This document shows positions 43,178 through 61,010 of a DNA stretch of 64,000 nucleotides, one piece after another (position 1 is the first letter of the stretch; each line of letters starts with the position of its first letter). The DNA is taken from contig PMWT01000073.1 in NCBI GenBank assembly GCA_003166025.1, positions 8,657 to 72,656 of the forward strand, given 5' to 3'. This stretch comes from Acidimicrobiaceae bacterium. GTDB taxonomy: Bacteria > Actinomycetota > Acidimicrobiia > Acidimicrobiales > Palsa-688. The notes under the pieces are model-generated. The model made no database searches. It had not been told where the DNA came from and saw only the letters and a list, made by a program, of their open reading frames with translations. The position numbers were made by a program, and so were the translations under genes.

Positions 43178-43248
43178 GTCGTCGACCAGCGCCGACGTTA
43201 CAGCGGTGTTGCGGCAGGCTGTACAGTAAGTCCTTCGGTACAGCCCTG

Positions 43249-43320
43249 GGCGGCGTGGCCGAGTGGTTCAGGCAAGGGCCTGCAAAGCCCTCTACAGCGG
43301 TTCGATTCCGCTCGCCGCCT
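43249..43320 (+). tRNA. tRNA-Cys (anticodon GCA)
   Basis: I folded the cloverleaf by hand. The acceptor stem is GGCGGCG/CGCCGCC. The anticodon stem is AGGGC/GCCCT with loop CUGCAAA. The T arm is AGCGG-TTCGATT-CCGCT. The variable loop is 4 nt and the discriminator is U. CCA is not encoded. Confidence 0.9.
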
Positions 43321-43564
43321 CCCTGGTCAGAGGGCCTTTCCTCTCTGGAGGGGGACGGCCCATCCCGCGGGCTTCCCGCCCGGCTAGGCATTGGCCCACC
43401 CACTCACCAGGCAGACCAGATAAGCCCTGGTAAGGGCGGTGGGCGCAGGCGGACCACGGGCCCCCAGTTGGCAGCCAAGGGGCAGCCTCGGCGAGGCTGC
43501 ATTTGCCCTGGTGGGTAACGGCAGCCGGGGGCATGCCGAGCCCGAGCTCGTCCAAACAGTCCGC

Positions 43565-43613
43565 TTGCGCTCGGCCCTCGCCGCCATTAGCCTACACGTC
43601 ATATGGCATACCA
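43565..43613 (+). promoter_or_regulatory. Class A promoter-operator module: TTGCGC-N17-TAGCCT-N4-GTCATATGGCATACCA
   Basis: Read directly. It lies about 45 nt upstream of ATG 43659 and has a near-identical counterpart at 49783-49831. Confidence 0.6.
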
Positions 43614-43658
43614 TAGACAGGGCCTACTGGCGCCGGGGCTACGGGAAGGTTGACACCC

Positions 43659-44705
43659 ATGGGCCACCCGCTGCGGTTCGCCATCTTTGGCGCTGGGTTC
43701 TGGTCCCGGTTCCAGCTGGGGGCCTGGCGTGAGCTCGAGGGGGCCGAGTGTGTGGCGGTGTACAACCGGACTCGCTCGAAAGCCGAGGCCCTGGCCAGGG
43801 AGTTCGGCATCCCCGCCGTTTACGACGACCCAAAGGCTCTGCTGGCCAGTGAACGTCTTGACTTCGTCGACATCGTGACCGGTGTCGAGAGCCATGAGGA
43901 GCTGACCTGTCTGGCCGCCGCCGACGGGATAGCCGTGATCTGCCAGAAACCGATGGCACCCTCGGCAGCCGGCGCCGAGGCCATGGTGGCCGAGTGCCAC
44001 GCCGCGGGCGTGCCCCTGCTGGTCCACGAGAACTGGCGCTGGCAAGTCCCGATCAGATATGTGTCCCAGGTGCTCTCCGAGGGCACGATAGGCAAGCCCT
44101 TCCGGGCGCGGGTCGACATGATCTCAGGCCACCCGGTGTTCAAGAACCAACCGTTCTTGCGTGAGCTTGACCAGTTTATCCTGATGGATCTGGGAAGCCA
44201 CATCCTGGACGTGGGCCGGTTCCTGTTCGGTGAGCCCACAAGCGTGTATTGCCAGCACCGGCGGGTGCGCGATGATATCAAAGGCGAAAACGTGGCGACG
44301 GTAATGATGAATACCGAGCGTGATGTCACCGTGCTGTGCGAAATGGCTTATGCCGAGAACCACCTCGAGAGGGAGTGCTTCCCGCAAACGCTCATTTTTG
44401 TCGAGGGCGACCGGGGATCGGTCGAAGTAACGCCTGATTACTGGGTGCGGGTGACAACCGAGGCGGGCACGCTGGCCCGTCGTTGCCCGCCCCCGCGCTA
44501 CCCGTGGGCCGACCCCGGCCACGATATTGTCCACGCCAGCATCGTCCCGTGCCAAGCCAACCTCTTGGCTGCCTTGCGGGACGGCCAGCCGGCGGAAACC
44601 ACAGGTGATGACAATCTGAAGACAGTGCGGCTCGTTTTCGCCGCCTACGCCTCGGCCGGGCTCGACGCCGTGCTCAAGAAGGGCCCGGCCGGCCGGTGGC
44701 TGTGA
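43659..44705 (+). CDS. Gfo/Idh/MocA-family NAD(P)-dependent sugar oxidoreductase
   Basis: LRFAIFGAGFWSRF is the Rossmann motif, followed by ICQKPMA and ENWRW. ATG 43659 is preceded by GGGAAGG. Confidence 0.8.
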   Translation: MGHPLRFAIFGAGFWSRFQLGAWRELEGAECVAVYNRTRSKAEALAREFGIPAVYDDPKALLASERLDFVDIVTGVESHEELTCLAAADGIAVICQKPMAPSAAGAEAMVAECHAAGVPLLVHENWRWQVPIRYVSQVLSEGTIGKPFRARVDMISGHPVFKNQPFLRELDQFILMDLGSHILDVGRFLFGEPTSVYCQHRRVRDDIKGENVATVMMNTERDVTVLCEMAYAENHLERECFPQTLIFVEGDRGSVEVTPDYWVRVTTEAGTLARRCPPPRYPWADPGHDIVHASIVPCQANLLAALRDGQPAETTGDDNLKTVRLVFAAYASAGLDAVLKKGPAGRWL

Positions 44706-44733: not shown

Positions 44734-45525
44734 ATGGAGACGACAGGCACACTAGAACGTTTTTTCGGCTTGAAGGGTAAGACCGCGCTGGTGACCGGTG
44801 CCGGGGGCGGCCTGGGCTCGGCGCTGGCGGAGGGACTGGCGGGAGCGGGTGCCGCAGTGGCTCTTGCCGATCTACCCGGCTCAGCGGGCCTGCGTGAAGT
44901 GCACGCCCGGCTTGAGCAGGAGGGCTATGCCGTATCCACCGTGGAGGCCGACGTTTCCGACGTGCCGGCTGCGCCGTCGATGGTCCAGCAGGTCGTCGAC
45001 GACCATGGTTCGATCGACATTTTAGTCAATTGTGCCGGCATTAACCGCCGTGAGCCGATCCTTGAGGTCACGCCGGAGATTTTCGACCGGATTACCGGGG
45101 TCAACCTGCGCGGCTTATATTTTTTGAGCCAGGCGGCAGCCCGGGTAATGAAAGACAATGGAGGCGGGAAAATAATTAACATCGGCTCCCTGACTTCGAC
45201 CATCGCATTGTCGGAAGTCTCGGTCTACGGCTGCACCAAGTCGGCTGTGGCGCAGCTGACCAAGACCATGGCCGTCGAGTGGGCGCAATACAACATACAG
45301 GTCAACGCTATTGGACCTGGCTTCATGCGCACCGCTTTGTCGGTCCCGGTGTGGGACAACCCAGCTCGTCGTAGTTGGATGGAGGGCAGGATCCCCATGC
45401 GTAGAGGGGGGCAGCCGGACGAGCTCGTCGCTACAGCCATCCTTCTCGCCAGCCAGGCATCGTCGTACATAAGCGGGCAGATAATCTTCGTCGACGGGGG
45501 TTTCCTGTCAGGCAGCCCCTGGTAG
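44734..45525 (+). CDS. SDR oxidoreductase (gluconate 5-dehydrogenase / KduD-like)
   Basis: TGAGGGLG, NCAG, YGCTKSA, with a GAGGAGG RBS. Confidence 0.8.
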   Translation: METTGTLERFFGLKGKTALVTGAGGGLGSALAEGLAGAGAAVALADLPGSAGLREVHARLEQEGYAVSTVEADVSDVPAAPSMVQQVVDDHGSIDILVNCAGINRREPILEVTPEIFDRITGVNLRGLYFLSQAAARVMKDNGGGKIINIGSLTSTIALSEVSVYGCTKSAVAQLTKTMAVEWAQYNIQVNAIGPGFMRTALSVPVWDNPARRSWMEGRIPMRRGGQPDELVATAILLASQASSYISGQIIFVDGGFLSGSPW

Positions 45526-47534: not shown

Positions 47535-48353
47535 TCAGCTTTGAACGCACAGCAGCTTTTTCAAGTTGTGGACGCTCCGCTCGGCCCATTCGCCTTCGGT
47601 GGCGATGGTCGCTTCAAGGGTCGGGCCTGGCGGCGTCCACAGCTCGATTATGGCGCTCAGGTTGCGGTCACGGGCGCCGAGCTTGTCCAAGAGCCAGGTG
47701 ACGTTCAGCTGTCCTTCGCCGGCCGGCCGCCCCTCGATCTCAAAACCCATCATGTGCCCGGCCCGCCGCACGGCGAAGTCCTTCACGTGCAGGTTGACGG
47801 CGAAGGGGCCAAGCTTGTCGACAACGACACCAGGGCCCTCGAGAGCGCCGAACGAGTTCACCGTGTCCAGGCATATACCGGCCCAGTCGGTCCCGAGCTC
47901 CTGGACCACATGGACCAGCTCGTCGGTTGAGAACTTGTCGTGGTTCTCAATGGCCAGAGTTACCCCCGCGCTTTCGAAGGCGTCTTGTTGGGGCTTCAAG
48001 ATGGAGATGGCTTCGTCCGGGGTGAGCTCACGGCCCTTCTGGGCGATTATGACCCGCAACAAGGGAGAGCCCAGAAGCTGGGCCAGTGAGAGGTACCGGG
48101 CGATGTAGTCGGCGTCGATGCCCCGGGTACCGATTTCTATCGAGACGCCCAAGGCACGTGCACGCGCGGCCAAGGCGTTGAGGTCGTCTTCGGGTAGCTG
48201 GTCGAGGGGCAGGTTGTCCGCCACCTGGAGCACGGGCACACCTAGGGAATGAGCACGCTCGACCAAGTCGAGCACGCCCAAGGTCTGCGCCGGGAGGTGG
48301 CCGGGAACGCCGACGGCCCACGTGTAGGTGTAGGACGAGATCCCGATCCTCAT
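47535..48353 (-). CDS. Sugar(-phosphate) isomerase/epimerase, xylose-isomerase-like TIM barrel
   Basis: MRIGISSYTYTW, LAIENHD, HVKDF, LSAIIELW. Confidence 0.75.
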   Translation of the reverse strand: MRIGISSYTYTWAVGVPGHLPAQTLGVLDLVERAHSLGVPVLQVADNLPLDQLPEDDLNALAARARALGVSIEIGTRGIDADYIARYLSLAQLLGSPLLRVIIAQKGRELTPDEAISILKPQQDAFESAGVTLAIENHDKFSTDELVHVVQELGTDWAGICLDTVNSFGALEGPGVVVDKLGPFAVNLHVKDFAVRRAGHMMGFEIEGRPAGEGQLNVTWLLDKLGARDRNLSAIIELWTPPGPTLEATIATEGEWAERSVHNLKKLLCVQS

Positions 48354-48371: not shown

Positions 48372-49214
48372 TCAGTCGCCGCCGGTTATCTCCCGAACGC
48401 TTTGCATGATCGACTCGCGCTCGAAGATCTTGAACCAGTCATCCTTGAACAGAGCGCTGCGGGCTTTGTCCAACGCCATCTGAGCGCCGGCCGAGAGCTT
48501 CCAATTGAGCTGCTCGAAGATGATGGCGGTACCGATCTGGAAGTGCCCCATGAGGAAGTCACGCGCTGCCTCTTCGGGGATCCCGGCCTCCACCACACGG
48601 GACAAGCCCTCCCGGATGATGGCGATGCAACCGTTGGTGAGGGTCTCGCTGAGGGCGGGCTCGAGCATCGCCATCTGGTCGACGGTTATCCGGTGCGAGC
48701 GCGTGACGGGGGCGAACATCGTCATGGCCAGCTTCTCCACCTGGTCGGAAATGGGCCCGGCGTCTCCCCAGGCGACGGCGAAGACGATGGCCTGGCGTGC
48801 CAGCCCACCGCCCCAGTAGTCGGCCCGGGCCTCTGGCTCGGTCTCGCTCAGCAGGCTGTAGAGGGGCGGGTGTGTGGGGTGGGTGACATAGCAATTGATA
48901 TCGGAGCGATGCGGTATCCGGTCGGCGGCAATGGCGGCGGGGTCGAGGAACAGCATGCTCGTGCCCCGGTCCAGCTTGGGCACGATGTCCGCTGCCACAT
49001 CGCGCACGATGAAATCGGGAACGGCGAAGATAACGACCTCGGCGCCCTCGAGGCCGGGCTCCGGGTCGACCACCGACAGGCCCATCTCGGCCAGCAAACC
49101 GCGGCCGCGTTCGCCGGGCTCGATCAGGCGGAGCTTGTAAGAGTCGTCGCCCTGCAGGGCCCCGCTGATCCGCCGGCCCATGTTCCCGCCCGCTCCAAGT
49201 ATTGCCACCTGCAT
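48372..49214 (-). CDS. NAD(P)-binding oxidoreductase (Rossmann N-terminus plus helical C-terminal domain, 6PGDH-C-like)
   Basis: MQVAILGAGGNMG is at the N-terminus. ATG 49214 is preceded by GGGAG. The ORF-track GTG 49223 is an alternative start. Confidence 0.65.
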   Translation of the reverse strand: MQVAILGAGGNMGRRISGALQGDDSYKLRLIEPGERGRGLLAEMGLSVVDPEPGLEGAEVVIFAVPDFIVRDVAADIVPKLDRGTSMLFLDPAAIAADRIPHRSDINCYVTHPTHPPLYSLLSETEPEARADYWGGGLARQAIVFAVAWGDAGPISDQVEKLAMTMFAPVTRSHRITVDQMAMLEPALSETLTNGCIAIIREGLSRVVEAGIPEEAARDFLMGHFQIGTAIIFEQLNWKLSAGAQMALDKARSALFKDDWFKIFERESIMQSVREITGGD

Positions 49215-49782
49215 GTTCGTCACTCCCTATGCCGCTGGGCGGGCGTTTGGCCCGCGGGCTCGTCGAAAAGCTATGATCGGACGATCAGTCGGCATGCAGC
49301 ATACCAAAACCTGCTTCCTTAGGTCAAATCACCGGGCCGGCGATTGGTTACCGGCGCCGTCGGCGCGCTTACGCCAGGGCCACGATGACCTCGTCCCGCA
49401 ACAGTTCGAGGGTGCCTCAATTTCTGGCCCCAGCAGCTTGGGCGCTGCCCGTAGGGGAAAGGGCGGCGGTGACCTGTTGCCCAGGATCCTGGAAGAGAAC
49501 TCAAAATGGTGCCCTCGGTACCGTCATTTACTATCGCATCTTCCTTCGTCGACCGGTACTGGCGACATAACCCCGCGACGAGCGACCGTCGACGCTCGGG
49601 GACACCCCGGCCGGGTGCGCGTAGCCGGTACCGGCAACTCCGAGCGTTCCTGTGGTGCGCAGACGGCCGGGCGGTCGCCCGCGCTTAGAAGTCCGAGCGC
49701 CCCGCCTGTAAGGCGCTGGCTGTGGGTGCTGACCGACTGCTGGACCTCAGCCCCGACTAGGTGCGCTAGCGGCTAGCTGCAC

Positions 49783-49831
49783 TTGCGCTTGCTCGGACCG
49801 GGAGATAGTCTAAGTGTCATATGGCATGCCA
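49783..49831 (+). promoter_or_regulatory. Class A promoter-operator module: TTGCGC-N17-TAGTCT-N4-GTCATATGGCATGCCA
   Basis: Read directly. It ends 31 nt upstream of GTG 49863. The core TGGCATGCCA is a perfect 10-bp palindrome. Confidence 0.6.
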
Positions 49832-49862
49832 GCTGCCCAGGCGCTGAGCCGGGAAAACCTGC

Positions 49863-50903
49863 GTGACCGAGGCGGTAGCATCCTCACCCGGCAAGGTGAT
49901 CCTTTTTGGGGAGCACGGCGTTCACCGGGGACAGGCCAACATAACGACCGCGGTGGATTTGCGGACCTGGTGCCGCGTGACCGTGCGGCCGGACAGTGGC
50001 TACAGCCTGGCCTCCGGCGCCCTTTGCGAAGAGGGCAGCCGTGAGAGGTTGGCCGCTTTCAAGGCTCAGGTCGACGCTCTGCGGGAGGCAAACGCGCTCA
50101 GCGAACTGGCCGCGCTGACCAAGGACTTCTTTGTCCCGGCGCGTTACGTCATGGCCACCCTGGCCCATAACCCACAGGTCCCAGGGCTCGACGTTGAGTG
50201 GCGTTCGACGTCGCCGATCGGGTCGGGGCTCGGCTCAGGTGCCGCCGCCTTTACCTCGATGGTCCTGGCCGCGGCCCAGGCGTCGGGGCTAGACCTGTCG
50301 GCTGAGGAAGTTATCTTCACCGCCTGGCAGGGCGATGTCATCGCTCATGGCGGCTACGGCTCCAGCCTGGACAGCAGCACGTGCACCTATGGAGGCTTGA
50401 TCAGCTACACCCTCGACGATGGTGCCGTGCGACTGCCATACGATGTGCCTCTCCCTTTGGTTGTCGGCGACACCCTTATCGAGCACAAGACCTCGAAAGT
50501 AAACACTCACCTGCGATTGTGGCTGCAAGAACGCCCGTCGCGCATGCATATTTTCAGCGATATGGGCTATCTGGTAGAGCGGTTCATGGCCGGCCTTGAG
50601 GACGCGGACTTGGTTAGCCTGGGCCGGCTGATGAACATTCACCAATTGCTCCAGGAAAAGATGGGCACCTCTTGTCCCGAAAGCGACGTCCTGGTCGAGG
50701 CGGCCATAGCGGGGGGAGCATTGGGCGCCAAAATCTCGGGCTCAGGTTGTGGCGGGATCGTGATCGCCTTGTGCCAACCGGGGCACGAGGAGCAGGTTGC
50801 CGCGTCCATGGAGGCGGCGGGGGGCAAGAGTTACGTTGTCCGCACCGGCGAAGCCGGTGCGCGTTCGGAGCCCGCCGGTGCATGGAGCGCGTCGGTTGGC
50901 TGA
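49863..50903 (+). CDS. GHMP-family kinase, mevalonate-kinase-like
   Basis: PGKVILFGEHGV, SPIGSGLGSGAAA (the GHMP ATP motif), GAKISGSGCGG. Confidence 0.8.
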   Translation: MTEAVASSPGKVILFGEHGVHRGQANITTAVDLRTWCRVTVRPDSGYSLASGALCEEGSRERLAAFKAQVDALREANALSELAALTKDFFVPARYVMATLAHNPQVPGLDVEWRSTSPIGSGLGSGAAAFTSMVLAAAQASGLDLSAEEVIFTAWQGDVIAHGGYGSSLDSSTCTYGGLISYTLDDGAVRLPYDVPLPLVVGDTLIEHKTSKVNTHLRLWLQERPSRMHIFSDMGYLVERFMAGLEDADLVSLGRLMNIHQLLQEKMGTSCPESDVLVEAAIAGGALGAKISGSGCGGIVIALCQPGHEEQVAASMEAAGGKSYVVRTGEAGARSEPAGAWSASVG

Positions 50904-50939
50904 AGGCCGCATGACCCTAGTTGCAAAGGAGAAGGATCT

Positions 50940-51632
50940 ATGGCAAATGCAGTAGGCGAGACGAAACCGACCGACTTTATGGTCAGCATCCCGAAAGGTC
51001 GGGTTGTCGACCTGAGCCACCGGCTTTACCCGGGTGCCGAGCAGTACACGCTCGAGGTAACCCACCGTGGCGACCGCAACACGCCTGAAGGCGACATTAT
51101 GAGCAGCGTCTACATGTGGTCGCACGTGGGCACCCACGTAGAAGCCATGCTCCACTTTTTGTGGGATGGCACTGATGCCGCCGGCTTGGCCATCGACCGC
51201 CTGATGGGGCCGGCCATCGTGCTTGACTTCCGGGACAAGGGCGTCAATGAGCCGATCAGCCTGGAGGAAATGAAAAAGGCGGGCGACATCGAAGTGGGCG
51301 ACCGGGTACTGGTCATGACGGGACGGCACGTCCAGTACCGCACACCGCAGTCGCATGACCGGCCGTACATCACCGAAGAGGCCACTCGATGGCTCGTCGA
51401 TGACAGGAAGATCAACTGCCTGGGCACGGACAGCTCGGGTTTCGAAGTGCGGGGAGTGAGCCACCATCCCAACCACCAGATCCTCAACTACGCCGGCGTG
51501 CCGGTCATCGAATGTATGAACAACTTGGTAGAGCTGCGCAGCAAGCGCGTCTACCTGATCGCCTTGCCGCTGCCGATCACCGAACTGGACGCCAGCCCGG
51601 TGCGGGCTATTGCCATTGACCCAGAGGAGTAA
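50940..51632 (+). CDS. Cyclase-family metal-dependent hydrolase (kynurenine formamidase / isatin hydrolase fold)
   Basis: WSHVGTHVEA matches the HxGTHxDA-type motif. There is a strong AAGGAGAAGG RBS. Confidence 0.7.
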   Translation: MANAVGETKPTDFMVSIPKGRVVDLSHRLYPGAEQYTLEVTHRGDRNTPEGDIMSSVYMWSHVGTHVEAMLHFLWDGTDAAGLAIDRLMGPAIVLDFRDKGVNEPISLEEMKKAGDIEVGDRVLVMTGRHVQYRTPQSHDRPYITEEATRWLVDDRKINCLGTDSSGFEVRGVSHHPNHQILNYAGVPVIECMNNLVELRSKRVYLIALPLPITELDASPVRAIAIDPEE

Positions 51633-51637
51633 CCGTT

Positions 51638-52351
51638 ATGCCCGGGCCCTCGGCCGTAAGCCCCCGCCCCCAAGGCGTACGGCTAGGGGCGGCCCTCTAC
51701 AACGGTGACCACAGTCGTTTGGGAGACGAGATCGGCCGGCTGGAGCCCGCCGGTTTGGATTTTGTCCACATCGACGTCTTCGACGGCCATTTCGTCCCTG
51801 ACATCGGTTTCGCGCCCCGCACGATTGCCGCCCTGCGCCCGCTGACCAAGCTGCCTTTCGAAGTGCACCTGGGAGCGGCGGAGCCGTTGCGCATGGTGCC
51901 CTCCCTGGTGGACGCGGGGGTGGACCTTGTGCTCATCCATATCGAATGCCTGCCGTTGCCCTACGAGGCTCTGAGGCTGGCCCGGACGTATGGTTGCAAG
52001 ATCGGTCTGGCATTAACCTTGGGCACGCCCATAAGCCACCTGGGCCCGGTTGTCAGCCTTGTCGATTCGGTCCTTCTGCTGTCACGGGTGACCGGCGAGG
52101 GAGCCCAGGGGTCGTTTGACCCTCTGGTCCTGGCGCGCCTGCGTGCCGTACGGGAAATGGTAGACGCCATTGCGGGCGAAGTCGACATCCAGGCCGCTGG
52201 GGGTGTCAGGCGCCAACACGTGAGCGATCTGGTGGCGGCGGGCGCGGCGACCATTTCTATAGGTGGCGGCATTTACGGTGCCGCCGACATGGCGGAGGCG
52301 ATAGCCGAAATGCGTATAGCGGCCGCGGGCGAGGCGGGGGACCATGGCTGA
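51638..52351 (+). CDS. Ribulose-phosphate 3-epimerase-family protein
   Basis: [27 protein letters not shown]. The GAGGAG RBS lies inside the end of the upstream gene. Confidence 0.8.
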
Positions 52352-52985
52352 GGCGCCAATGGGGAGCGCGGACATCCTGCGGGAAGCCCGGGCCTTGGTG
52401 CGGGCCGAAGGCGGGGCTGTGACGGCCGTGGCCGAGCAGTTGGGCGAGACCTTCGTGCAGGCCGTCCAGCTGGTAGCGGGGTGCACCGGCCGCATCTTCG
52501 TGACCGGGTCAGGGACCTCGGGCGCCATGGCCTACCGCCTGGCACACCTCCTGGCCACGTGCGGGATGCCAGCTTTTTTCATTCCTCCCAGCGATGCCCT
52601 CCACGGTGAATCGGCGATGGTGGCGCCCGGCGACGTGATGATCGCCCTGTCCAAAGCGGGCAAGAGCGCCGATATCAACGAGTTCGCCGCCATCGCCGCC
52701 CAGCGCGGTTGTGCGGTAATGGCGTGGACCGCCGACGCTACGTCGGAGCTGGCGCGTTTGAGCCAACTCGTTGTTGTGATCGAGACGGACCAGGCCGGCG
52801 AAGGTGAGGGCGTGCTCCCCTTCGGTAGCACTCTGGCGCACGGCGCCGTCGGTGACGCCTTGTGCCTACTGACCAAGCGCTGGCGTGGCTTCAACCTGGC
52901 CGAGCTGGCCCAGACGCACCCGCTCGGAGGCGCGGCGCAACTGCTGACGAGGCCGGCGGACAACCCACGGCGGGCGACGCAATGA
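52344..52985 (+). CDS. SIS-domain sugar-phosphate isomerase (KpsF/GutQ- or PHI-like, single domain)
   Basis: [15 protein letters not shown] and [11 protein letters not shown]. It overlaps the upstream gene by 8 nt. Confidence 0.75.
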
Positions 52986-53980
52986 ACGCGCAACCCGGGC
53001 CCCAGTCTGGGGGGATCCCTCCGGTGCCGCCCCGGTGGACAGTGCTGATCGGCTCCCGGTCGTTCGGCCAGCTGTTCCCCGAGCACATCACTGAGCTGGA
53101 GCGGGCGGGTTGTGCCGTGGTCCCCAACCCGATTGGCCGCGCTCTCAACGAGAACGAGCTCCTTCGGGCCTTGGACGGGGTCGACGCCATCATCACCGGG
53201 ACAGACGAGCTGACCGCACGCGTCATAGAGTCGGCTTCCCAATTAAAGACGATCGTCAAACACGGTGTCGGGTTGGAAACCATAGACCTGGCCGCGGCCC
53301 GGGCCCGAGGCATCGTCGTCTCCTTCACCCCGGGCACGATCCACGACTCGGTTGCTGACTTGACGATGGCGCTGTTGTTGGCGCTGGCGCGCAAGATCGT
53401 GCCTGCTCACCTCAGCACCCGGCTGGGTTCGTGGAAGCCCTTTTTCGGCATGGAGCTGAGGGACGCCACCCTTGGGCTGGTGGGGCTGGGCCGGATCGGC
53501 CAGGCGGTCTGTGTCCGTGCCCGAGCCTTCGGCATGGGCGTCCTCGCCTGCGACCCGTACCCCAATGAGGGTTTCGCAGCTGAGCACGACGTTACCTTCG
53601 TGTCTTTGGCCGAGCTGTTGAAGGCGTCCGATGTCGTGTCGTTGCACGCCGCCGCCGAACAAGTGCCGGGGGCCCTCATCGGGCACGACGAGCTGCGGCT
53701 CATGAAGCCGGGGGCTCTGCTCATCAACACGGCACGAGGGCAGCTCGTCGACGAAGCCGCACTGGCCGCGGCATTGCGCGACAACCGCTTGGGTGGGGCG
53801 GGTATTGACGCATTCGTCAATGAGCCGCCCGTGGGCAGCCCATTGTTGGGCCTCGACAATGTAGTGCTGACGCCTCACCTCGGTGGTCGCACCCAGGGGG
53901 GACAGCGCCGGATGGGCGAGATGGCCATCGAGAATTGCCTGCGGGCGCTCCGGGGCGAAATGCCGTTGTACGCCGTCTGA
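52982..53980 (+). CDS. D-isomer-specific 2-hydroxyacid dehydrogenase (PGDH/GyaR-like)
   Basis: [17 protein letters not shown], and DAF...EP motifs. ATG 52982 overlaps the upstream stop (ATGA). Confidence 0.8.
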
Positions 53981-54069: not shown

Positions 54070-54098
54070 TTGCACACGATCTGATGGTATGCCAAGCT
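54070..54098 (+). promoter_or_regulatory. Class B promoter-operator module: TTGCAC-ACGATCTGATGGTATGC-CAAGCT
   Basis: Read directly. 23 of 29 positions match 60965-60993. The TGGTATGCCA core sits across the spacer/-10 junction. It lies about 250 nt upstream of the ABC binding-protein start. Confidence 0.5.
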
Positions 54099-54299
54099 GG
54101 GGCAACTGTCCTGGGGGGCATATGCCGCTTGTATTGAGGTCGTTGGGCCCAACGAGGGCTGCGGCGACGGGAACATCTCGAGCTTGTCTTCGCTTCGCCG
54201 CGGGCGGAGGCACCGATCGGTACGGCTGCAATGGCCGAGAGCGGCACTAAGCAGAAAAACAGGGCGTCGTCTTGCAAACGCCGACGCGGTACTCGGGTA

Positions 54300-54327
54300 T
54301 TGCAACAATGCATTACCTCGATATACA
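54300..54327 (+). promoter_or_regulatory. Candidate proximal promoter TTGCAA-N16-TATACA
   Basis: Read directly. It lies 18 nt upstream of GTG 54346, and the GGAGGGGAG RBS falls in between. Confidence 0.35.
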
Positions 54328-54345
54328 AAACGGAGGGGAGCTCAA

Positions 54346-55437
54346 GTGAAAAGACATTGGTTCACTAGATTGTCCGGCCTCGTTGTTGCCGCCGCACTGC
54401 TCGGGTCGGGCGGCTCGATCGCTTCGACGGCGGCAGGTGCGGCACCGGCCGGTGCCAGCGGTAAATACGTCATCGCTCTCAGCAACTCGTTTTTGGGCAA
54501 CACATGGCGCCAGACGATGGTGAACATCTTCGAGCAGACGGCCAAGACCGCCGAGAGCCAAGGCCTCATCTCGGGCTACAAGGTTGAGAACACTTCAGAC
54601 AATGATGCCACGACTCAGATTTCACAGATCAAGAGCCTTATTCTCGAACATGTCAACGCTCTGTTGATCGATGCCGCGTCACCCACGGCCCTGAACTCGA
54701 CCATCAAGGAGGCGTGCCAGGCCGGCATAACCGTCCTGGTGTTCGACTCGCTGGCCTCGGCCCCTTGCGAGTACAACCTCGCCGATAACTTCAGCCTCTA
54801 CGGCCAAGAGGAGGCGCAGCTGGTCGGGTCGTGCATGCACGGCACCGGCAACGTCATCGTGGCCCAGGGCGTGGTCGGCTCGGCGCCGTCGGAGGAGATC
54901 TACCACCAGCAGCTGGCCGAGCTGAAGATGTTCCCCAAGATCAAAATCGCATCGACGGTGGTGGGCGAGGCGGACAATTCCACGACCGAGCAGGCCATCG
55001 CTAGTGTGTTGCCGAGCCTCCCGACCGTACAGGGGGTGATCACCGGCGGCAGCTCTTACGGCGCCGTGGAGGCGTTCCTCAACGCCAAGCGTCCCCTGCC
55101 TTGCGCCGTGTACGACAATACGGGGCTGGCTCTGCGGTTCTGGATGGCCCAGCACCAAAAGGACGGGTACAACGCCTACTCCTACCGCACCGAGCCCGGG
55201 CAGGCGGCAGCGGCGTTCTGGGAGGCTTTGCAGCTTCTCCAGGGCAAGCACTTCGCCAGGAACCTGACCTTCCCGAACATCGAGGTCACGCCGAGCACGC
55301 TCACCCAGTGGATCAAGGTCGTGCCGTCACAGCAGGTTTGCGCCTGGCTGTGGACTGAAGCACAGTTCAACCAGGAGATAACGGCGATCGCCGCGCACCA
55401 CCTCTACTACCCGCCGATCTCCACATCGACCGTTTGA
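54346..55437 (+). CDS. ABC transporter periplasmic monosaccharide/polyol-binding protein (CUT2, PBP type I)
   Basis: GTG 54346 follows a GGAGGGGAG RBS. The signal peptide is VKRHWFTRLSGLVVAAALLGSGGSIAS. The body is ribose-binding-protein-like (KYVIALSNSFLGNTW). Confidence 0.8.
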   Translation: MKRHWFTRLSGLVVAAALLGSGGSIASTAAGAAPAGASGKYVIALSNSFLGNTWRQTMVNIFEQTAKTAESQGLISGYKVENTSDNDATTQISQIKSLILEHVNALLIDAASPTALNSTIKEACQAGITVLVFDSLASAPCEYNLADNFSLYGQEEAQLVGSCMHGTGNVIVAQGVVGSAPSEEIYHQQLAELKMFPKIKIASTVVGEADNSTTEQAIASVLPSLPTVQGVITGGSSYGAVEAFLNAKRPLPCAVYDNTGLALRFWMAQHQKDGYNAYSYRTEPGQAAAAFWEALQLLQGKHFARNLTFPNIEVTPSTLTQWIKVVPSQQVCAWLWTEAQFNQEITAIAAHHLYYPPISTSTV

Positions 55438-55460
55438 ACAGGCGGGACAACAAGGGCTAA

Positions 55461-57002
55461 GTGAGGCCGCGGCACGTGAGCAAACAGACGGCGAAACGAT
55501 GCCCCTCCGAGGCAGAGGAGGGAGAAGCCCGTGGGGGCGGTTCCCTCCTCTGCCTCAGCGCCATTACCAAGCGCTATGGCAGTACCCAGGCCTTGGACGG
55601 GGTGGACCTTGTGGTCAGGCGGGGCGAAATCCTCGGTATTGTCGGTCACAACGGAGCCGGGAAGAGCACGCTCATGCGGGTCGTGCTCGGTATCACGCGG
55701 TGCGATTCAGGGACCATCGAGTTCAACCACGAGCGCGCCGGCCCGGGCTACTCACTGGCCCAGGCCTACGCCCGGGGCGTCCGCATAGTCTTCCAAGAGC
55801 TCGCCCTGTGCCCATCGCTGCGCGTTTTCGAGAACGTCTACGTGGCCCGGCCCGCGCTCCGGGGCCGGGGCTGGCGCCGTCGCTCTCGCCAGGCGATCGT
55901 CCAAAGTCTTCAGAACGTCTTTCCTGGCAGTCGTATTTCCGCCCGGGCCGGGATCGGCCGCCTTCCTCTCGCTCAGCGCCAAATGGTCGAGATCGCTCAG
56001 GCCGTGATCGGCGGCGAAGAAGAAGTCAGCCTCCTCGTCCTCGACGAACCGACCTCGGCCCTCAGCCGCGAGGCGGCCGAGCAACTCTACGACTTCCTCC
56101 GCCGTCTGCGCGCCGGAGGCGTCTCGACGATAGTCATTTCCCATCGCATGCAGGAGGTGCTCAACAACACGGACCGCACCGTCGTCATGCGTGACGGCCG
56201 CGTGGTCGGCGAGCGGATATCGGCTGAGACAAGCTATGACGAAGTGCTGGCCCTGATGGGAGCGGCGCCGGTCGACGCCGCGGAGGCCTCAAAGGGCAGC
56301 CTGCGACCGGTCGGCGAGCAGATCCTGAGCGTGAGCGTGCTGTCGACGCACCGGCTGTTCGACGTTTCGTTTTCCGTTCGCCGAGGCGAGGTGGTCGGCA
56401 TCGCCGGTCTCGACGGTCAGGGGCAGCAGGACCTGCTGCTCGAACTGTGGAGGTGCCGACGGCGCTGGCGCAGCCGCTCCGTTCGTTGCAGCGGGGAAAT
56501 GGCGTTTGTGACGGGGGACCGCCAGAGGGCAGGTGTTTTTTCTCTTTGGGATCTCAAGCGCAACGCCTCGGCGTCGGCCATGAGCGAGATCAGCTCGCTG
56601 GGCGTCCTGAACGCGCCCAAAGAGCTCGCGCTTGTAGATCGCTGGATCGCCCGCTTGGCTATCCGGGGTCAGCGCTCCTCAGGCATCGACGAGCTCAGCG
56701 GCGGTACGCAGCAAAAAGTCCTGGTAGCCCGGGCGCTGGCCAGCCAGGCCGACCTGGTATTGCTCGATGACCCGTTCCGCGGCGTGGACGTGGCCACCAA
56801 GCACGACACTTACGGCCTGATCCACGAGGAGGCGGACCGGGGACGGGCCTTTGTCTGGTTTTCGACCGAGAACGCTGAGTTCGAGGAATGTGACCGGATC
56901 TACGTCCTACGAGGGGGCCGCATCGCGGCCGAGCTAGCCGGCGCCGAGGCCACCGAGGACAAGCTGATCGCCGCCTCGTTCGGTTCGGGGAAACCGTCAT
57001 GA
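55461..57002 (+). CDS. ABC transporter ATPase, duplicated cassette (CUT2 type)
   Basis: The first cassette has GHNGAGKST, LVLDEPTSAL and ISHR. The second has LSGGTQQKV and LLDDPFRGVD. Candidate starts are GTG 55461 and GTG 55476. Confidence 0.85.
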   Translation: MRPRHVSKQTAKRCPSEAEEGEARGGGSLLCLSAITKRYGSTQALDGVDLVVRRGEILGIVGHNGAGKSTLMRVVLGITRCDSGTIEFNHERAGPGYSLAQAYARGVRIVFQELALCPSLRVFENVYVARPALRGRGWRRRSRQAIVQSLQNVFPGSRISARAGIGRLPLAQRQMVEIAQAVIGGEEEVSLLVLDEPTSALSREAAEQLYDFLRRLRAGGVSTIVISHRMQEVLNNTDRTVVMRDGRVVGERISAETSYDEVLALMGAAPVDAAEASKGSLRPVGEQILSVSVLSTHRLFDVSFSVRRGEVVGIAGLDGQGQQDLLLELWRCRRRWRSRSVRCSGEMAFVTGDRQRAGVFSLWDLKRNASASAMSEISSLGVLNAPKELALVDRWIARLAIRGQRSSGIDELSGGTQQKVLVARALASQADLVLLDDPFRGVDVATKHDTYGLIHEEADRGRAFVWFSTENAEFEECDRIYVLRGGRIAAELAGAEATEDKLIAASFGSGKPS

Positions 57003-57976
57003 TCGTCCCCGCGCCCCGAGAGCGGTTGCGTCACCGGCGCCTGCACGAGCTGGACGACTGGCGACAAACGACGTCGGACGCCCTACCCGCCTTCGCTTTG
57101 GTCGGGATGCTGGTCTGCACCCTCGTCCTCGTCCCCGGGGCTCGCAGTGTGAGCGGCCTGGAGCTGCTCCTTTCCTCGGCTATCCCTCTTGTTATCGCGT
57201 CACTGTCGCAGATGTTCGTTATCGTGCTGGGGGACATCGACCTCGGCACGGGCTACCTCGTGGGCTTGGCCAACGTGATCTCGGCCCGCTTCCTGGAGTC
57301 GAGCCCGGAGGTCGCCGTTGGCTTGTTAATTTTGGTCGTGCTTGCCTACATGGCCGCCGGCGCCCTCATCCATCTCCGCAAGATCCCATCGATAATTGTC
57401 ACTCTCGGAGCGTCGTTCATCTGGCTCGGTTGGGCTCTGGTGATCTTCCCCATACCCGGAGGGGATTCCCCGGGATGGCTGTCGTCCTTGATGAGCTGGG
57501 AACCCTCCTTCGTTCCGGCCGCAGTCGTGTTCGCCTTGGTGATCGCCGCCGTCGGGTACCTCATCACCAATCGCACGGCCTATGGCACGGTGATGCGCGG
57601 CGCCGGTTCCAACCGCCTGGCGGTCACTCGCTACGGCTGGTCGATGCTGCGGGTACGGGTCGTTTGTTACGGCTTGGCCGCGGTGTTCGGCATCATCGCC
57701 GGGCTCGCCCTGACGGGGATCACGTCCTCCGGCGACCCCAACGCGTCGGCCAACTACACCCTGCTCGCCATCGCTTCGGTGATCCTGGGCGGGGGCGAGT
57801 TCGCCGGCGGGCGGGCGCTCCCCGTCGGCACCGTTATGGGGGCGTTCTCCATCTCCCTCGTCGGGCAGCTTCTCGTCTTCTTCAACGTCTCGTCCGCCTA
57901 CCAGGCCGGTGCCCAAGGAATGATCCTCGTCGCCGTCCTGGCCGGGCGAGCGCTGTTGCGGATCGGGGTGCGATGA
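56999..57976 (+). CDS. ABC transporter permease (CUT2, RbsC-like)
   Basis: It is multi-TM (IDLGTGYLVGL). It overlaps the upstream stop by 4 nt. Confidence 0.8.
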   Translation: MIVPAPRERLRHRRLHELDDWRQTTSDALPAFALVGMLVCTLVLVPGARSVSGLELLLSSAIPLVIASLSQMFVIVLGDIDLGTGYLVGLANVISARFLESSPEVAVGLLILVVLAYMAAGALIHLRKIPSIIVTLGASFIWLGWALVIFPIPGGDSPGWLSSLMSWEPSFVPAAVVFALVIAAVGYLITNRTAYGTVMRGAGSNRLAVTRYGWSMLRVRVVCYGLAAVFGIIAGLALTGITSSGDPNASANYTLLAIASVILGGGEFAGGRALPVGTVMGAFSISLVGQLLVFFNVSSAYQAGAQGMILVAVLAGRALLRIGVR

Positions 57977-58962
57977 CGGCGGCCGAGCTCGGGGTGCCCG
58001 CCCCGCATAAACGCAGGGCCTGGGCCACGGCCAAGTCGCTGGCCGTCGAGTTGCCCTGGATATGGGTGTTCCTCGCCGTCGTTGCCATGTGGGCCGGTAT
58101 CGTAGCCGTCTCCGGGCGTGGGCTCCTAGGGACGATGACGGCGGCCATAGCGCTGGCTCCTTTCCTGGTGATCGTCGGTATCGGCCAGATGTTCGTGATT
58201 ACCAGCGGCAATGGCAATATCGACCTTTCCGTCCAGTACACAATGCCGTTGGCGGGTTTTGTCGGCATAAGCGTTATGAGCGGCGGGAGCGGCCGGGCTG
58301 CTCTCGGGGCTCTGGCCGCCATAGGGGTAGGTACCGCCGTTGCCGCCGCCAATCTCTTTTGCATCCTGGTGCTCGCTATCCCGCCCATTGTGGCCACCCT
58401 CAGCGTTGGCCTTATGGCGTACTCGGCCTCCTCGCTCCAGGCCCAGAGTTTCTCGGCCCTACCCGACCCGGGGTTGCACGCCTTCACGGTGAGCAGCGTC
58501 GGGGGCGTTTCCTGGCTTGCCATAGCCTGTGTCGGGCTCGCCCTGGTCGCCGGCGGAGCGCTTCACCGCATGACCTACGGGCGAGCGCTGCAGGCCGTGG
58601 GCCAGAACCGGCGCGCTGCCAGCCTGGCCGGCCTGCCCGTGACAAGGGTCATCATCATCTCTTACGTCGTATGCGGGGTGCTCGCCGCTATCTCGGGCCT
58701 TCTCTTGGCCACTTACGTGTCCCCGTCGGTCTCGATCGGCCAGCCCTACCTGTTGAACTCGATCGCCGTGGTCGTGCTCGGTGGCTCGTTGGTTTCCGGC
58801 GGCCGCTCCAATGTCGTCGGAGTGTGGGGCGGGGCCCTGTTCCTGCTCCTGCTCACGACCCTTCTGAACGTCATGAACATCGCCGTCGCGACCCAGGACA
58901 TCGTCAAGGGTGCTTTGATCATTCTTGTGCTTGCCCTTGTGGGCACGGACCAGGGCTCCTGA
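57973..58962 (+). CDS. ABC transporter permease (CUT2, RbsC-like), second subunit
   Basis: ATG 57973 overlaps the upstream stop (ATGA). It contains NGNIDLSVQYTMPLAG and multiple TM helices. Confidence 0.8.
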   Translation: MTAAELGVPAPHKRRAWATAKSLAVELPWIWVFLAVVAMWAGIVAVSGRGLLGTMTAAIALAPFLVIVGIGQMFVITSGNGNIDLSVQYTMPLAGFVGISVMSGGSGRAALGALAAIGVGTAVAAANLFCILVLAIPPIVATLSVGLMAYSASSLQAQSFSALPDPGLHAFTVSSVGGVSWLAIACVGLALVAGGALHRMTYGRALQAVGQNRRAASLAGLPVTRVIIISYVVCGVLAAISGLLLATYVSPSVSIGQPYLLNSIAVVVLGGSLVSGGRSNVVGVWGGALFLLLLTTLLNVMNIAVATQDIVKGALIILVLALVGTDQGS

Positions 58963-58987
58963 GGGAGCCAGAACGGAGGACGCAGTC

Positions 58988-60022
58988 ATGCGAGCAGCCT
59001 TGACAACGGGGCCGGGGCAGATGGGCCTCTATGACCTGCCGGCCCCCGAGGCTGGTCCTGGGCAGGTGCGGGTCTCGGTCGGCGTCGTAGGCCTGTGCGG
59101 AGGGGACATCCACATATACCGGGGGCAACATCCCTATGCCACCTACCCCCTGGTGCAGGGCCACGAGTTCTGCGGGACAGTGCTTTCGTTCGGGCCCGGT
59201 TACACGGGCGCCCTGCGTCCTGGCGAGCTCGTCGCCATCGAACCTTTGTTGCCCTGCGGCACCTGTTTCGCCTGCCGGCGCCGTCACCCGAACTGTTGTT
59301 CGGAGCTCAAGGTCATGGGCGCGCATGTTGATGGGGCATTGGCGGAGGAAGTCGTGGTGCCTGTCTCTTGTTGCTACCCGGTGGGGGACTTGCCCGCTGA
59401 GCTCGCCGCCCTGGTGGAGCCGGTCTCGATCGGGCTCCAGGCGGTCGTACGCTCGGGCGCGGCGGCCGGGGACCAGGTGCTCGTGCTTGGTGCCGGCCCC
59501 ATCGGGCAGGCCGTCACGATCTGTGCCGCTGACCGGGGCGCTGAGGTGATGGTGGTAGACAAGCTTGCCAACCGACTGGAGCTAGCCTCCCATCTCGGTG
59601 CCAGCCGCGTGGTCGACGTGTCCCACGAGTCGGTCGAAGGGGCGGTCAAGAGCTGGACCTCGGGTGACGGCCCCGCGGTGGTGGTTGAAGCTACGGGTGT
59701 ACCCGCCCTTATCCGCCAGGCGGCCGACGTCGTCGCCCCCTCGGGCACCGTCGTCGTTGTCGGCATATCCATGGAGGACGTGGCCCTCTCCGTCCTCGAC
59801 TTCACTCGTAAGGAGCTCAACATCCTCGGCTCGCGCAATAACGCCGGCCTGTTCGCCGAGGCCGTGGAGACGGTGCGGCGTAGCCCGAAGCGCGTGGCGC
59901 AGCTCATAACCCACCGCTTTCCCTTTGAGGAAGCCCCACGCGCCATGGAGCTACTCCGCGACCACCCCGAGAAAGCCGAAAAGGTGCTGGTGACCTTGGG
60001 CGAGCGGGCCGAAGCCCACTAG
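58988..60022 (+). CDS. Zn-dependent medium-chain alcohol/polyol dehydrogenase
   Basis: GLCGGDIHIY, GHEFCG, CGTCFACRRRHPNCC (structural Zn site), VLGAGPIG. The RBS is GGAGGA. Confidence 0.85.
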   Translation: MRAALTTGPGQMGLYDLPAPEAGPGQVRVSVGVVGLCGGDIHIYRGQHPYATYPLVQGHEFCGTVLSFGPGYTGALRPGELVAIEPLLPCGTCFACRRRHPNCCSELKVMGAHVDGALAEEVVVPVSCCYPVGDLPAELAALVEPVSIGLQAVVRSGAAAGDQVLVLGAGPIGQAVTICAADRGAEVMVVDKLANRLELASHLGASRVVDVSHESVEGAVKSWTSGDGPAVVVEATGVPALIRQAADVVAPSGTVVVVGISMEDVALSVLDFTRKELNILGSRNNAGLFAEAVETVRRSPKRVAQLITHRFPFEEAPRAMELLRDHPEKAEKVLVTLGERAEAH

Positions 60023-60964: not shown

Positions 60965-61010
60965 TTGCAGACGGTCTGATGGAATGCCAGAATGCCTCTG
61001 ATGAATGGCA
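60965..61010 (+). promoter_or_regulatory. Class B promoter-operator module TTGCAG-ACGGTCTGATGGAATGC-CAGAAT plus an adjacent degenerate half-copy TCTGATGAATGGCA
   Basis: Read directly. It lies in the divergent region between the GntR gene and the DUF4038-like gene. Confidence 0.5.

Follow-up and report, generated by a model that had tools for sequence, protein, structure and literature searches.

The window analysed here, a 64-kb stretch of contig PMWT01000073.1 from an Acidimicrobiaceae bacterium, contained a compact operon of five genes encoding a GHMP kinase, a cyclase-family protein, a protein of the ribulose-phosphate 3-epimerase (RPE) fold (RPE*), a single-domain SIS protein and a D-isomer-specific 2-hydroxyacid dehydrogenase (2-HADH). 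The gene content strongly supported the view that the locus is a D-apiose/D-apionate utilisation regulon and that the five-gene operon is one of its transcription units. For the operon itself we hypothesize, with the case for and against about evenly balanced, that the module forms a non-homologous 'lower' pathway for D-apionate. D-Apiose catabolism is a known kind of metabolism, in which the module, as far as could be established, replaces the known lower-pathway enzymes. D-Apiose is the branched pentose of rhamnogalacturonan II (RG-II) in every vascular plant cell wall and of many glycosides (apiosides), and routes for its breakdown were worked out only in 2018.

The tight packing of the five genes on the plus strand, described in an earlier note on this DNA, was borne out by the open reading frames (ORFs), the junctions and the Pfam assignments (Table 1). 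The kinase and cyclase genes were separated by 36 nt and the cyclase and RPE* genes by 5 nt, the RPE* and SIS genes overlapped by 8 nt (52344-52351), and the SIS and 2-HADH genes shared a 4-nt overlap, ATGA (52982-52985). Other gene callers placed three of the starts further downstream, giving 210 aa for RPE*, 208 aa for SIS and 312 aa for 2-HADH; this turned the overlaps into short gaps and left the tight packing unchanged. The N-terminus of the kinase agreed with that of its homologues (MT..VASSPGKVILFGEHGV). From the spacing of the genes we infer that all five are co-transcribed.

The context was assigned to D-apiose because the window encoded a GH140 apiosidase-family protein, an apionate-lactonase-family (ApnL-like) protein, a homologue of D-apionate oxidoisomerase (ApnO) and a Gfo/Idh/MocA oxidoreductase, all within a sugar-utilisation island that extended from 43.6 kb to the window end. 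The Gfo/Idh/MocA protein had its best PDB match in the 5UHW series (257 bits; next best 71 bits), which we take to be structures from work on apiose, and homologues with 39-67% identity were present in 16 of 33 related loci. The ApnL-like protein matched NF049900 over its full length with 263 bits (equivalog cutoff 750), and its orthologues carried the domains PF25837/8/9 (Apionate_lact_N/M/C). The ApnO homologue, a member of its family at the level of homology only, had 5T57 as its best PDB match (230 bits), and relatives at 68-82% identity were named 'D-apionate oxidoisomerase' by JGI. It was adjoined by a xylose-isomerase-like TIM barrel (PF01261), an arrangement that was found in the window and in the loci L027, L029, L030, L070 and L075, without exception. 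The PF01261 protein had no PDB or NCBIfam match by sequence; it is presumably a candidate, no more, for a 3-oxoisoapionate decarboxylase (MetaCyc, EC 4.1.1.120). The GH140 protein had no obvious signal peptide by eye. The binding protein of the CUT2 ABC transporter was best matched by PDB 4PE6 (267 bits); the starts of the first and last genes of the transporter operon were uncertain.

All neighbouring genes named in the earlier note (the CUT2 transporter, a Zn-dependent dehydrogenase (Zn-ADH), the Gfo/Idh/MocA oxidoreductase, a short-chain dehydrogenase/reductase (SDR), a TIM barrel and a further oxidoreductase) were present. The locus as a whole proved recognisable, since its upper half matches the published oxidative D-apiose pathway (dehydrogenase, lactonase, oxidoisomerase). 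Of the scheme sketched in that note, the part in which an imported sugar is oxidised to a lactone and opened to a hydroxy acid, perhaps a branched one, agrees well with the apiose markers, D-apiose being a branched pentose.

The palindrome TGGYATRCCA occurred at three exact sites in the window, each just 5' of an operon start, where 0.09 sites were expected; none of 100 shuffles reached three. The 'class A operator' that had been placed ahead of the five-gene operon was therefore real. The orthologous site was kept in L070 (at 9937) and in L067-L069, and TGGYATRCCA was also found at promoter positions of related Actinomycetes and Chloroflexota loci. It was shared by L075, a locus that carries ApnO, ApnL and GH140 genes but no cassette. 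A further near-operator, with one mismatch to the palindrome, lay between the GntR and GH140 genes, and its flanks resembled those of the site upstream of the transporter operon. The GntR/FCD protein is presumed to bind TGGYATRCCA. Regulator and operator co-occurred in Chloroflexota and Actinomycetes loci, and the arrangement of a repeated palindromic operator before operons, next to a GntR/FCD gene, was that of a sugar-acid regulon of this regulator family. A scan for consensus promoters and terminators was uninformative.

Between the divergent ApnO homologue and the kinase operon lay 639 nt (49224-49862) in which no convincing ORF was found. This is long for a compact genome, and the operator was located at its far right end. 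The region had no Rfam match and no notable repeat; only a short palindrome (49621-49638) was found.

Table 1. Coordinates of the five-gene operon, the operator sites and other features in the window.
Feature	Position	Strand	Assignment or remark
GHMP kinase	49863-50903	+	GTG start; PF00288 + PF08544
Cyclase family	50940-51632	+	PF04199, 3e-25; AAGGAG upstream
RPE-like (RPE*)	51638-52351	+	PF00834, 1e-41
SIS, single-domain	52344-52985	+	PF01380, 2e-16
2-HADH, D-isomer-specific	52982-53980	+	PF02826 5e-54, PF00389
Operator TGGCATACCA	43604-43613		Upstream of Gfo/Idh/MocA-SDR operon
Operator TGGCATGCCA, perfect palindrome	49822-49831		32 nt before kinase GTG start
Operator TGGTATGCCA	54085-54094		Upstream of ABC transporter operon
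Near-operator TGGAATGCCA	60981-60990		GntR gene/GH140 gene intergenic region; one mismatch to palindrome
GntR/FCD regulator	60036-60842	-	PF00392 + PF07729
tRNA-Cys	43248-43323	+	ARAGORN, Rfam; borders sugar locus
Gfo/Idh/MocA oxidoreductase, candidate D-apiose 1-dehydrogenase	43650-44705	+	PF01408/PF22725
SDR, aldose-1-dehydrogenase/KduD-like	44734-45525	+	NF005559 glucose 1-dehydrogenase subfamily, 222 bits (cutoff 215)
Apionate-lactonase-family protein (ApnL-like), 638 aa	45566-47482	-	NF049900 ApnL, 4.5e-78
Xylose-isomerase-like TIM barrel	47535-48353	-	PF01261; adjoins ApnO homologue
D-apionate oxidoisomerase (ApnO) homologue	48372-49223	-	PF16896, weak KARI_N
CUT2 ABC transporter: binding protein, ATPase, two permeases	54184-58962	+	PF13407, PF00005, PF02653 x2
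Zn-dependent alcohol/polyol dehydrogenase (Zn-ADH)	58985-60022	+	PF08240/PF00107
GH140 apiosidase-family glycoside hydrolase	61060-62382 (start approximate)	+	PF13204 Apiosidase, 2.4e-66
CUT1 oligosaccharide-type binding protein	62486-63787	+	PF01547/PF13416
Radical-SAM/DUF3463 protein	25357-26361		Hopanoid cluster
PNP_UDP_1 fused to IspH/LytB	26362-27909		Hopanoid cluster
Squalene-hopene cyclase	27896-30043		Hopanoid cluster
Amine-oxidase-type desaturase	31080-32909		Hopanoid cluster
Squalene/phytoene synthase	33598-34602		Hopanoid cluster

Relatives of the kinase were collected by a scan of one genome per species, and gene order was determined by tblastn with the window proteins. In all, 33 non-redundant cassette loci were compared; linkage was counted, within the flanks retrieved, in those 19 that had 8 kb or more of sequence to either side. 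The kinase-cyclase-RPE*-2-HADH core was syntenic in the 33 loci, whose hosts were Chloroflexota, Actinomycetes, Myxococcota-like metagenome-assembled genomes (MAGs), a Bathyarchaeia MAG and [Eubacterium] cellulosolvens. Relatives of the kinase (43-62% identity) came from Anaerolineae, Caldilineaceae, Aggregatilineales, Thermomicrobiales and Chloroflexia among the Chloroflexota, and otherwise from Actinomycetes MAGs, an Anaeromyxobacter MAG, a 'delta proteobacterium' MAG and the Bathyarchaeia MAG. The recurring gene order was kinase, cyclase, RPE*, (SIS), 2-HADH, SDR. RPE* was linked to the kinase in 19/19 loci, the cyclase, 2-HADH and SDR in 18/19 each, a lactonase homologue (within 10 kb) in 16/19, Zn-ADH in 13/19, Gfo/Idh/MocA in 11/19, SIS and GntR in 9/19 each, ApnO and PF01261 in 4/19 each, and GH140 in 3/19. 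By these counts the SDR belongs to the core and SIS does not. The five genes form a conserved unit in which SIS is dispensable, and the SDR is linked to the core as tightly as the cassette genes are. The SDR orthologue stood directly after the 2-HADH gene in most other loci, while in the window it is part of the neighbouring operon. Zn-ADH homologues were often found directly upstream of the kinase gene in other cassette loci.

The association with apiose genes recurred in several arrangements. A GH140 gene adjoined the cassette in L016, L070 and L072, and adjoined ApnO in L075 and L077. In at least 10 Chloroflexota loci the kinase gene came immediately after an ApnL-like gene in the same orientation and ApnO was missing from the surrounding 10 kb, an order that speaks in favour of the module acting on apionate. 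In two Myxococcota-like MAGs (L027 and L029) the whole gene set formed an unbroken run on one strand in the order ApnO, PF01261, ABC transporter, kinase, cyclase, RPE*, 2-HADH, (Gfo/Idh/MocA in L027 only), lactonase, SDR, Zn-ADH; in L029 a GntR gene on the opposite strand followed the first two genes. No unassigned ORF able to be a DUF1537 kinase was found in this run.

Other neighbourhoods differed in their additional genes. The Bathyarchaeia MAG (L073:5299-6594) had a gene for a LarA-family nickel-pincer 2-hydroxyacid racemase/epimerase directly before the kinase and cyclase genes; the contig ends within the cyclase gene. Substrates of LarA proteins are described in PMC11770544. Genes for isocitrate lyase and malate synthase adjoined the Gfo/Idh/MocA gene in L001 (3682-6662) and L074 (1-2904), which are related Chloroflexota contigs; this would fit a glycolate or glyoxylate product but may reflect a single phylogenetic event. 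A Caldilineaceae locus (L071:1806-7962) carried genes for a Zn-ADH, a PF01261 protein, an SIS protein, an FGGY kinase, an aldo-keto reductase and an F_bP_aldolase-family protein upstream of the lactonase-kinase pair on the same strand, and these may form a second, parallel route; the F_bP_aldolase fold is that of 2-oxo-tetronate-4-phosphate decarboxylase (PMC12540250). On a 2.8-Mb metagenome contig (L075:10001-20634), a third kind of apiose-linked lower module was found in a locus with the same TGGYATRCCA operator. Its apiose genes were ApnO, PF01261, SDR, a lactonase homologue, Zn-ADH and GH140. The lower module consisted of FAH, metallo-beta-lactamase-fold, ApbA/ketopantoate-reductase-like and glyoxalase-fold genes and had no kinase; it resembles a version of the cassette that works without phosphorylation.

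The oxidative D-apiose/D-apionate pathways were reportedly described by Carter and colleagues in Nat Chem Biol in 2018. In them ApnO performs an oxidation and a carbonyl shift in one enzyme, with migration of a hydroxymethyl group. At the level of protein family, the window resembles these pathways in its Gfo/Idh/MocA dehydrogenase, lactonase-family protein, ApnO homologue, CUT2 binding protein and plant-glycan hydrolases, and would share with them the cleavage of a phosphorylated beta-keto acid that is proposed below. The canonical set comprises a dehydrogenase, a lactonase, an oxidoisomerase, a DUF1537 kinase and a RuBisCO-like decarboxylase (PMC11747546). In contrast, no DUF1537, RuBisCO-like or transketolase gene was found in the window or in the readable flanks of the related loci, which have GHMP, cyclase, RPE-fold and 2-HADH proteins instead, and most Chloroflexota loci also lack ApnO. 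The DUF1537 domain (OiaK) was absent from every predicted protein of the window and from the annotated flanks of L001, L070, L071, L072, L074 and L076, and RuBisCO-large and transketolase domains were absent from the window. The tetronate pathways, made up of LtnD/DenD, OtnI, OtnK (DUF1537) and OtnC (PMC12994016, PMC12540250), are alike in combining, in this sequence, a 2-dehydrogenase, a 2-oxo to 3-oxo isomerase, a 4-kinase and a decarboxylase, and in acting on small 2,3,4-trihydroxy acids, of which D-apionate is a 3-C-hydroxymethyl analogue. Their enzymes have beta-hydroxyacid dehydrogenase, PF01261, DUF1537 and class II aldolase or F_bP_aldolase folds, unlike the 2-HADH, RPE or cyclase, and GHMP folds of the module, and the order of phosphorylation may differ. 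In the literature on apionate, isoapionate/apulose, PF04199 and apiose together with GHMP, no description of the cassette was found, the published pathways being represented by secondary papers (PMC11747546, PMC12994016, PMC12540250, PMC13001218). The earlier view that this gene combination is not a described pathway was upheld in that no described pathway containing the module was found.

In the pathway that we propose, a GH140-family enzyme would release apiose, the CUT2 ABC system would import it, and the Gfo/Idh/MocA or SDR dehydrogenase would convert it, together with the apionate-lactonase homologue, to D-apionate. The ApnO homologue and its PF01261 partner would catalyse the published first step or steps onward from D-apionate. 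In the module, the GHMP kinase would phosphorylate a primary hydroxyl of D-apionate or of a derivative (step 1), and 2-HADH, resembling PdxB and SerA, would oxidise C2 of the phospho-acid (step 2). RPE* would then catalyse a metal-assisted ketol (hydroxymethyl-shift) isomerisation and possibly a decarboxylation too (step 3), and the cyclase-fold metalloenzyme would cleave a C-C bond by decarboxylation or hydrolysis, or alternatively open a lactone (step 4). Alternatively, RPE* would decarboxylate and the cyclase would act as a lactonase. A resulting tetrulose phosphate would be converted to erythrose 4-phosphate by SIS, or else 3-phosphoglycerate and glycolate would be formed (step 5). The order of the steps and the division of labour between RPE* and the cyclase are guesses. 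The scheme follows the logic of acid-sugar pathways, in which C2 is oxidised, the carbonyl is moved to C3, C4 is phosphorylated and the beta-keto acid is decarboxylated (PMC12994016, PMC12540250). Hints of a phospho-acid substrate came from the phosphate loops of RPE*, the basic residues of the cyclase, the phosphoglycerate-dehydrogenase-like 2-HADH and the LarA-type gene before the kinase gene in L073. We also considered that the GHMP kinase simply takes the place of OiaK between ApnO and PF01261, which is unlikely: L075 has both genes without a kinase, and many cassette loci have no ApnO.

RPE* shares the PF00834 fold, the His-Asp-His part of the metal site and the glycine-rich phosphate loops with the RPE superfamily (RPE, AlsE, KGPDC/UlaD and HPS). 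H44, D46 and H77 were kept, and the score to the Synechocystis RPE was approximately 135 bits. The Asp of the E. coli motif 'EVDGG', which is both the second metal ligand and an acid/base residue, corresponded to A187, and 25 of the 27 family members in the comparison had Ala or Val there. Three further signature motifs were altered in a family-specific manner, and the score against TIGR01163, the rpe equivalog, was 153.2 bits (cutoff 212.6). The full RPE set of two Asp acid/base catalysts and four metal ligands (His, Asp, His, Asp) was incomplete. The two Asp residues reportedly form the opposed acid/base pair of RPE, as described by Akana and colleagues in 2006. With the second one lost, classical epimerisation, as implied by the name that the earlier note gave to this gene, is doubtful. 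Judged by these residues, RPE* is unlikely to be a two-base epimerase; the site would fit a single-base isomerase or the protonation of a metal-bound enediolate from one face, as after a decarboxylation. By analogy, its function may lie nearer that of a single-base isomerase or of a decarboxylase like UlaD. The missing Asp was the reason for rejecting a classical ribulose-phosphate or allulose-phosphate epimerase.

The cyclase was the best conserved protein of the module, with 50-77% identity across phyla, and only four loci fell below 66%; the one Bathyarchaeia copy had 66% identity. The subfamily comprised 686 clusters at E<=1e-40. Among the best 120 of these, the members from Chloroflexota and [Eubacterium] cellulosolvens were 72-78% identical to the window protein, and the sources were nearly all uncultured. 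Fold and metal motif are those of PF04199, the family of kynurenine formamidase, isatin hydrolase, esterase MGS0169 and trans-dienelactone hydrolase. The motif H62-x3-H66-x-E68-x3-H72 was intact, with Glu in place of Asp, and the downstream motifs GxDxxGxE and HPxH were kept. Specific to the subfamily were basic residues in the insert GRHVQYRTPQSHDRP and in EVRGV, and additional conserved Arg, Lys and His residues stood beside the metal motif. Kynurenine formamidase was ruled out by score and context: the match to TIGR03035 (arylformamidase) was 74.5 bits (cutoff 223), and the arylformamidase motif HxGTHxDxPxH read HVGTHVEAMLH (Asp to Glu, Pro to Met). Unlike kynurenine formamidase, the protein had no tryptophan-catabolic context, carried the basic insert and was unusually conserved.

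The SIS protein (213 aa) consisted of an SIS domain only, was arabinose-5-phosphate-isomerase-like and had no CBS domains. Its best PDB matches were 5UQI and 2XHZ, and scores against the KpsF/GutQ models were 93-113 bits (cutoffs 204-505). T58, conserved in the family, took the place of the Lys in the GKSG motif. Activity of the general arabinose-5-phosphate-isomerase type is possible from the sequence, as isomerases without CBS domains exist (PDB 5UQI). A D-arabinose/Kdo salvage pathway of GHMP kinase, arabinose-5-phosphate isomerase and RPE was rejected: SIS is dispensable and has Thr for its catalytic Lys, RPE* lacks one base, and the cyclase and 2-HADH would be left without a role. In 2-HADH, the triad R252/E281/H299, the motif GLGRIG and D191 were conserved in 25 family members. 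It was most similar to phosphoglycerate dehydrogenases and to glyoxylate/glycerate reductases, with 1WWK (phosphoglycerate dehydrogenase) and 2CUK (glycerate dehydrogenase) as best PDB matches; the Arg-Glu-His triad and Rossmann NAD site of its family were in place, and it scored below every equivalog cutoff.

Several observations weigh against the D-apionate pathway as proposed. In [Eubacterium] cellulosolvens (a 15-kb contig) and in one Anaerolineae MAG, the cassette stood without a lactonase, a sugar dehydrogenase or a GH140 gene. The lactonase homologue scored well under the ApnL cutoff, was only 29-40% identical between loci, and its substrate could be a related lactone. With ApnO and PF01261 in the window a second apionate route would be redundant, which fits a cassette acting downstream of their product. 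Three dehydrogenases (2-HADH, SDR and Zn-ADH) were linked and the scheme needs one or two. We know of no precedent for a hydroxymethyl shift on the RPE fold or for C-C cleavage on the cyclase fold, and each step assignment is a prediction from sequence. The most far-reaching form of the proposal is tentative and, in our judgement, doubtful: a D-apionate pathway that would be the fifth, would share no homology with the others, would be common among uncultured Chloroflexota and other soil and sediment lineages, and would include three activities unprecedented in their folds. These would be a GHMP kinase for a branched aldonic acid, a single-base, metal-dependent RPE-fold ketol isomerase (hydroxymethyl shift) and/or decarboxylase, and a cyclase-fold enzyme for C-C cleavage of a phosphorylated keto acid.

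The alternative that survived best, although we consider it unlikely, is that the module consumes L-erythrulose formed by ApnO and the PF01261 decarboxylase. In that case the kinase would phosphorylate a tetrulose, RPE* and SIS would isomerise the tetrulose and tetrose phosphates on the way to erythrose 4-phosphate, Zn-ADH and the SDR would interconvert L- and D-erythrulose via erythritol or threitol, and the cyclase and 2-HADH would be accessory. This would explain why the window, L027, L029, L030 and L070 have ApnO, PF01261 and the cassette and no other kinase, and L075 shows that ApnO and PF01261 work with no kinase between them. Sugar phosphates are the usual substrates of the RPE and SIS folds, the single base of RPE* suits an isomerase with a 1,2-proton shift, and the SDR scored on the GolD/DthD (threitol dehydrogenase) subfamily model. 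Against it, 15 of the 19 well-flanked loci had no ApnO or PF01261 within 10 kb, yet had the lactonase gene directly before the kinase gene on the same strand. Erythrulose would also leave the two best conserved genes, for cyclase and 2-HADH, without a role and require SIS, which is missing from half of the loci, and the kinase resembles hydroxy-acid kinases and not ketose kinases.

The order of steps suggested in the earlier note has a low probability. There, the cyclase opens a sugar lactone, the kinase phosphorylates the acid, and a true epimerisation, an isomerisation and a dehydrogenation follow. In our reading the lactone might be phosphorylated, or might be apionolactone in a second ring form. 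In its favour, the furanose rings of apiose come in two series, and many loci have both a Gfo/Idh/MocA and an SDR sugar dehydrogenase. A metal-dependent carboxylesterase and a trans-dienelactone hydrolase are among the members of PF04199 (PMC5341072), and the H-x3-H-x-E-x3-H hydrolase motif is intact. No other lactonase was found near the cassette of [Eubacterium] cellulosolvens. The cyclase need not open the ring in most loci, though, because a dedicated lactonase homologue is already present there. RPE* lacks the second base for a classical epimerisation, and the conserved basic residues of the cyclase point, weakly, to an anionic substrate and not to a neutral lactone.

A slight probability was given to a general phosphorylative pathway for C4 acid sugars (D-erythronate, D-/L-threonate) or for another small 2-hydroxy acid, which would be merely co-located with the apiose genes. 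The kinase would form a 4-phospho-tetronate, a PdxB-like oxidation, as in the established PdxB reaction, would give 2-oxo-3-hydroxy-4-phosphobutanoate, RPE* would act as a single-base 2-oxo/3-oxo isomerase, and decarboxylation would yield dihydroxyacetone phosphate. All steps but one are known reaction types, following the logic of OtnI and OtnC (PMC12994016, PMC12540250), and the Asp-to-Ala exchange in RPE* is most simply read as the mark of an enediol isomerase with a single base. The cassette stands alone in [Eubacterium] cellulosolvens and after a LarA-type gene in the Bathyarchaeia MAG, and overlapping specificity is plausible given that D-apionate is a 3-C-hydroxymethyl tetronate. Against co-location as the sole link, the association with the lactonase family (16/19), with GH140 (the window and three loci) and with a shared operator goes far beyond the casual, and free tetroses or tetronolactones that need an adjacent dehydrogenase and lactonase are not known as common substrates.

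The kinase has the fold and ATP motifs (PF00288/PF08544) of mevalonate and archaeal pantoate kinases, which phosphorylate the primary hydroxyl of a small branched hydroxy acid. By our own chemical comparison, pantoate (2,4-dihydroxy-3,3-dimethylbutanoate) has the carbon skeleton of apionate, substituents aside. K11 was invariant and D203 at least 90% conserved in the family alignment, and the glycine-rich loop 120-129 was kept. The cassette kinase scored below the curated cutoffs for mevalonate kinase (TIGR00549, 161.5 bits, cutoff 163.05), NF003036 (166.8 bits, cutoff 403) and pantoate kinase (27 bits, cutoff 380), and unlike the known enzymes it has a sugar-catabolic context and an insertion of about 60 residues relative to archaeal mevalonate kinases. 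Members of the cassette clade were at least 43% identical, in contrast to at most 32% for true mevalonate kinases from archaea, Lactiplantibacillus and Myxococcales. A genuine mevalonate kinase in an isoprenoid-related operon is very improbable and was rejected: the score lies 1.5 bits below the TIGR00549 cutoff, the best PDB matches are mevalonate kinases and JGI and NCBI give relatives that name, but the identity gap, the insertion, the score itself and a sugar-catabolic context conserved across phyla, never with mevalonate-pathway genes, speak against it. In agreement with the doubt already expressed about an isoprenoid role, no other mevalonate-pathway gene was found in the window or in the assigned or annotated flanks of the 33 related loci. 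The ispH gene that had been cited as a marker of the MEP pathway was present; this copy is a PNP_UDP_1-IspH fusion in a hopanoid cluster.

In a subclade of the kinase from loci labelled Caldilineaceae, Anaerolineae or Chloroflexota (L008, L011, L012, L015, L017, L018, L020 and L024), the presumed catalytic Asp, D203 (VVGDT), was replaced by Asn, Val, Glu or Gln. Five positions downstream, a one-residue insertion created a new Asp in most of these loci ('VKDRST', 'VADRST') and a Gly in L017 and L024. The N-terminal motif ILFGEHGV read IILCGDHGV in this subclade (IILAGDHGV in L024).

Relatives of the module proteins bore the pipeline names 'mevalonate kinase', 'arylformamidase', 'ribulose-phosphate 3-epimerase', 'arabinose-5-phosphate isomerase GutQ' and 'D-3-phosphoglycerate dehydrogenase', and look-ups of sequence clusters returned pipeline names only. 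Labels of this kind are carried by hundreds of sequence clusters, and reconstructions from MAGs will therefore wrongly infer mevalonate, tryptophan-catabolic and pentose-phosphate steps. With the kinase so close to the TIGR00549 cutoff, slightly different relatives would be named mevalonate kinase automatically. Most carriers of the module are uncultured Chloroflexota and Actinomycetes known from metagenomes of environments in which plant carbon is turned over. Three folds that have been studied intensively (GHMP, the RPE barrel and cyclase/KynB) could gain new reaction types from the module. It is also a testable target: its proteins are few (four or five), small and soluble, the substrate can be bought, and a regulator and operator are predicted.

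The sugar locus was bordered by a tRNA-Cys gene, and G+C was 0.68-0.72 upstream vs 0.62-0.67 across the locus. Together these features suggest that the island was horizontally acquired; the cassette proteins are 50-77% identical across phyla. Rfam matches in the whole window were limited to a tRNA.

The rest of the window was housekeeping in character, with several genes of actinobacterium type (a BldD-like regulator, a DtxR-family repressor and an F420H2-dependent quinone reductase). A hopanoid-type cluster was located at 25357-34602 (Table 1). Two ORFs of 769 and 669 aa (4081-6390, minus strand, and 40065-42074, plus strand) had coding-like codon bias and no Pfam match at E<=1e-5. On the minus strand at 6276-9885, a citrate-synthase-family gene lay beside a PrpD/MmgE gene, as in the methylcitrate cycle; the citrate-synthase-family ORF had approximately 320 extra N-terminal codons, and its true start is probably much later.

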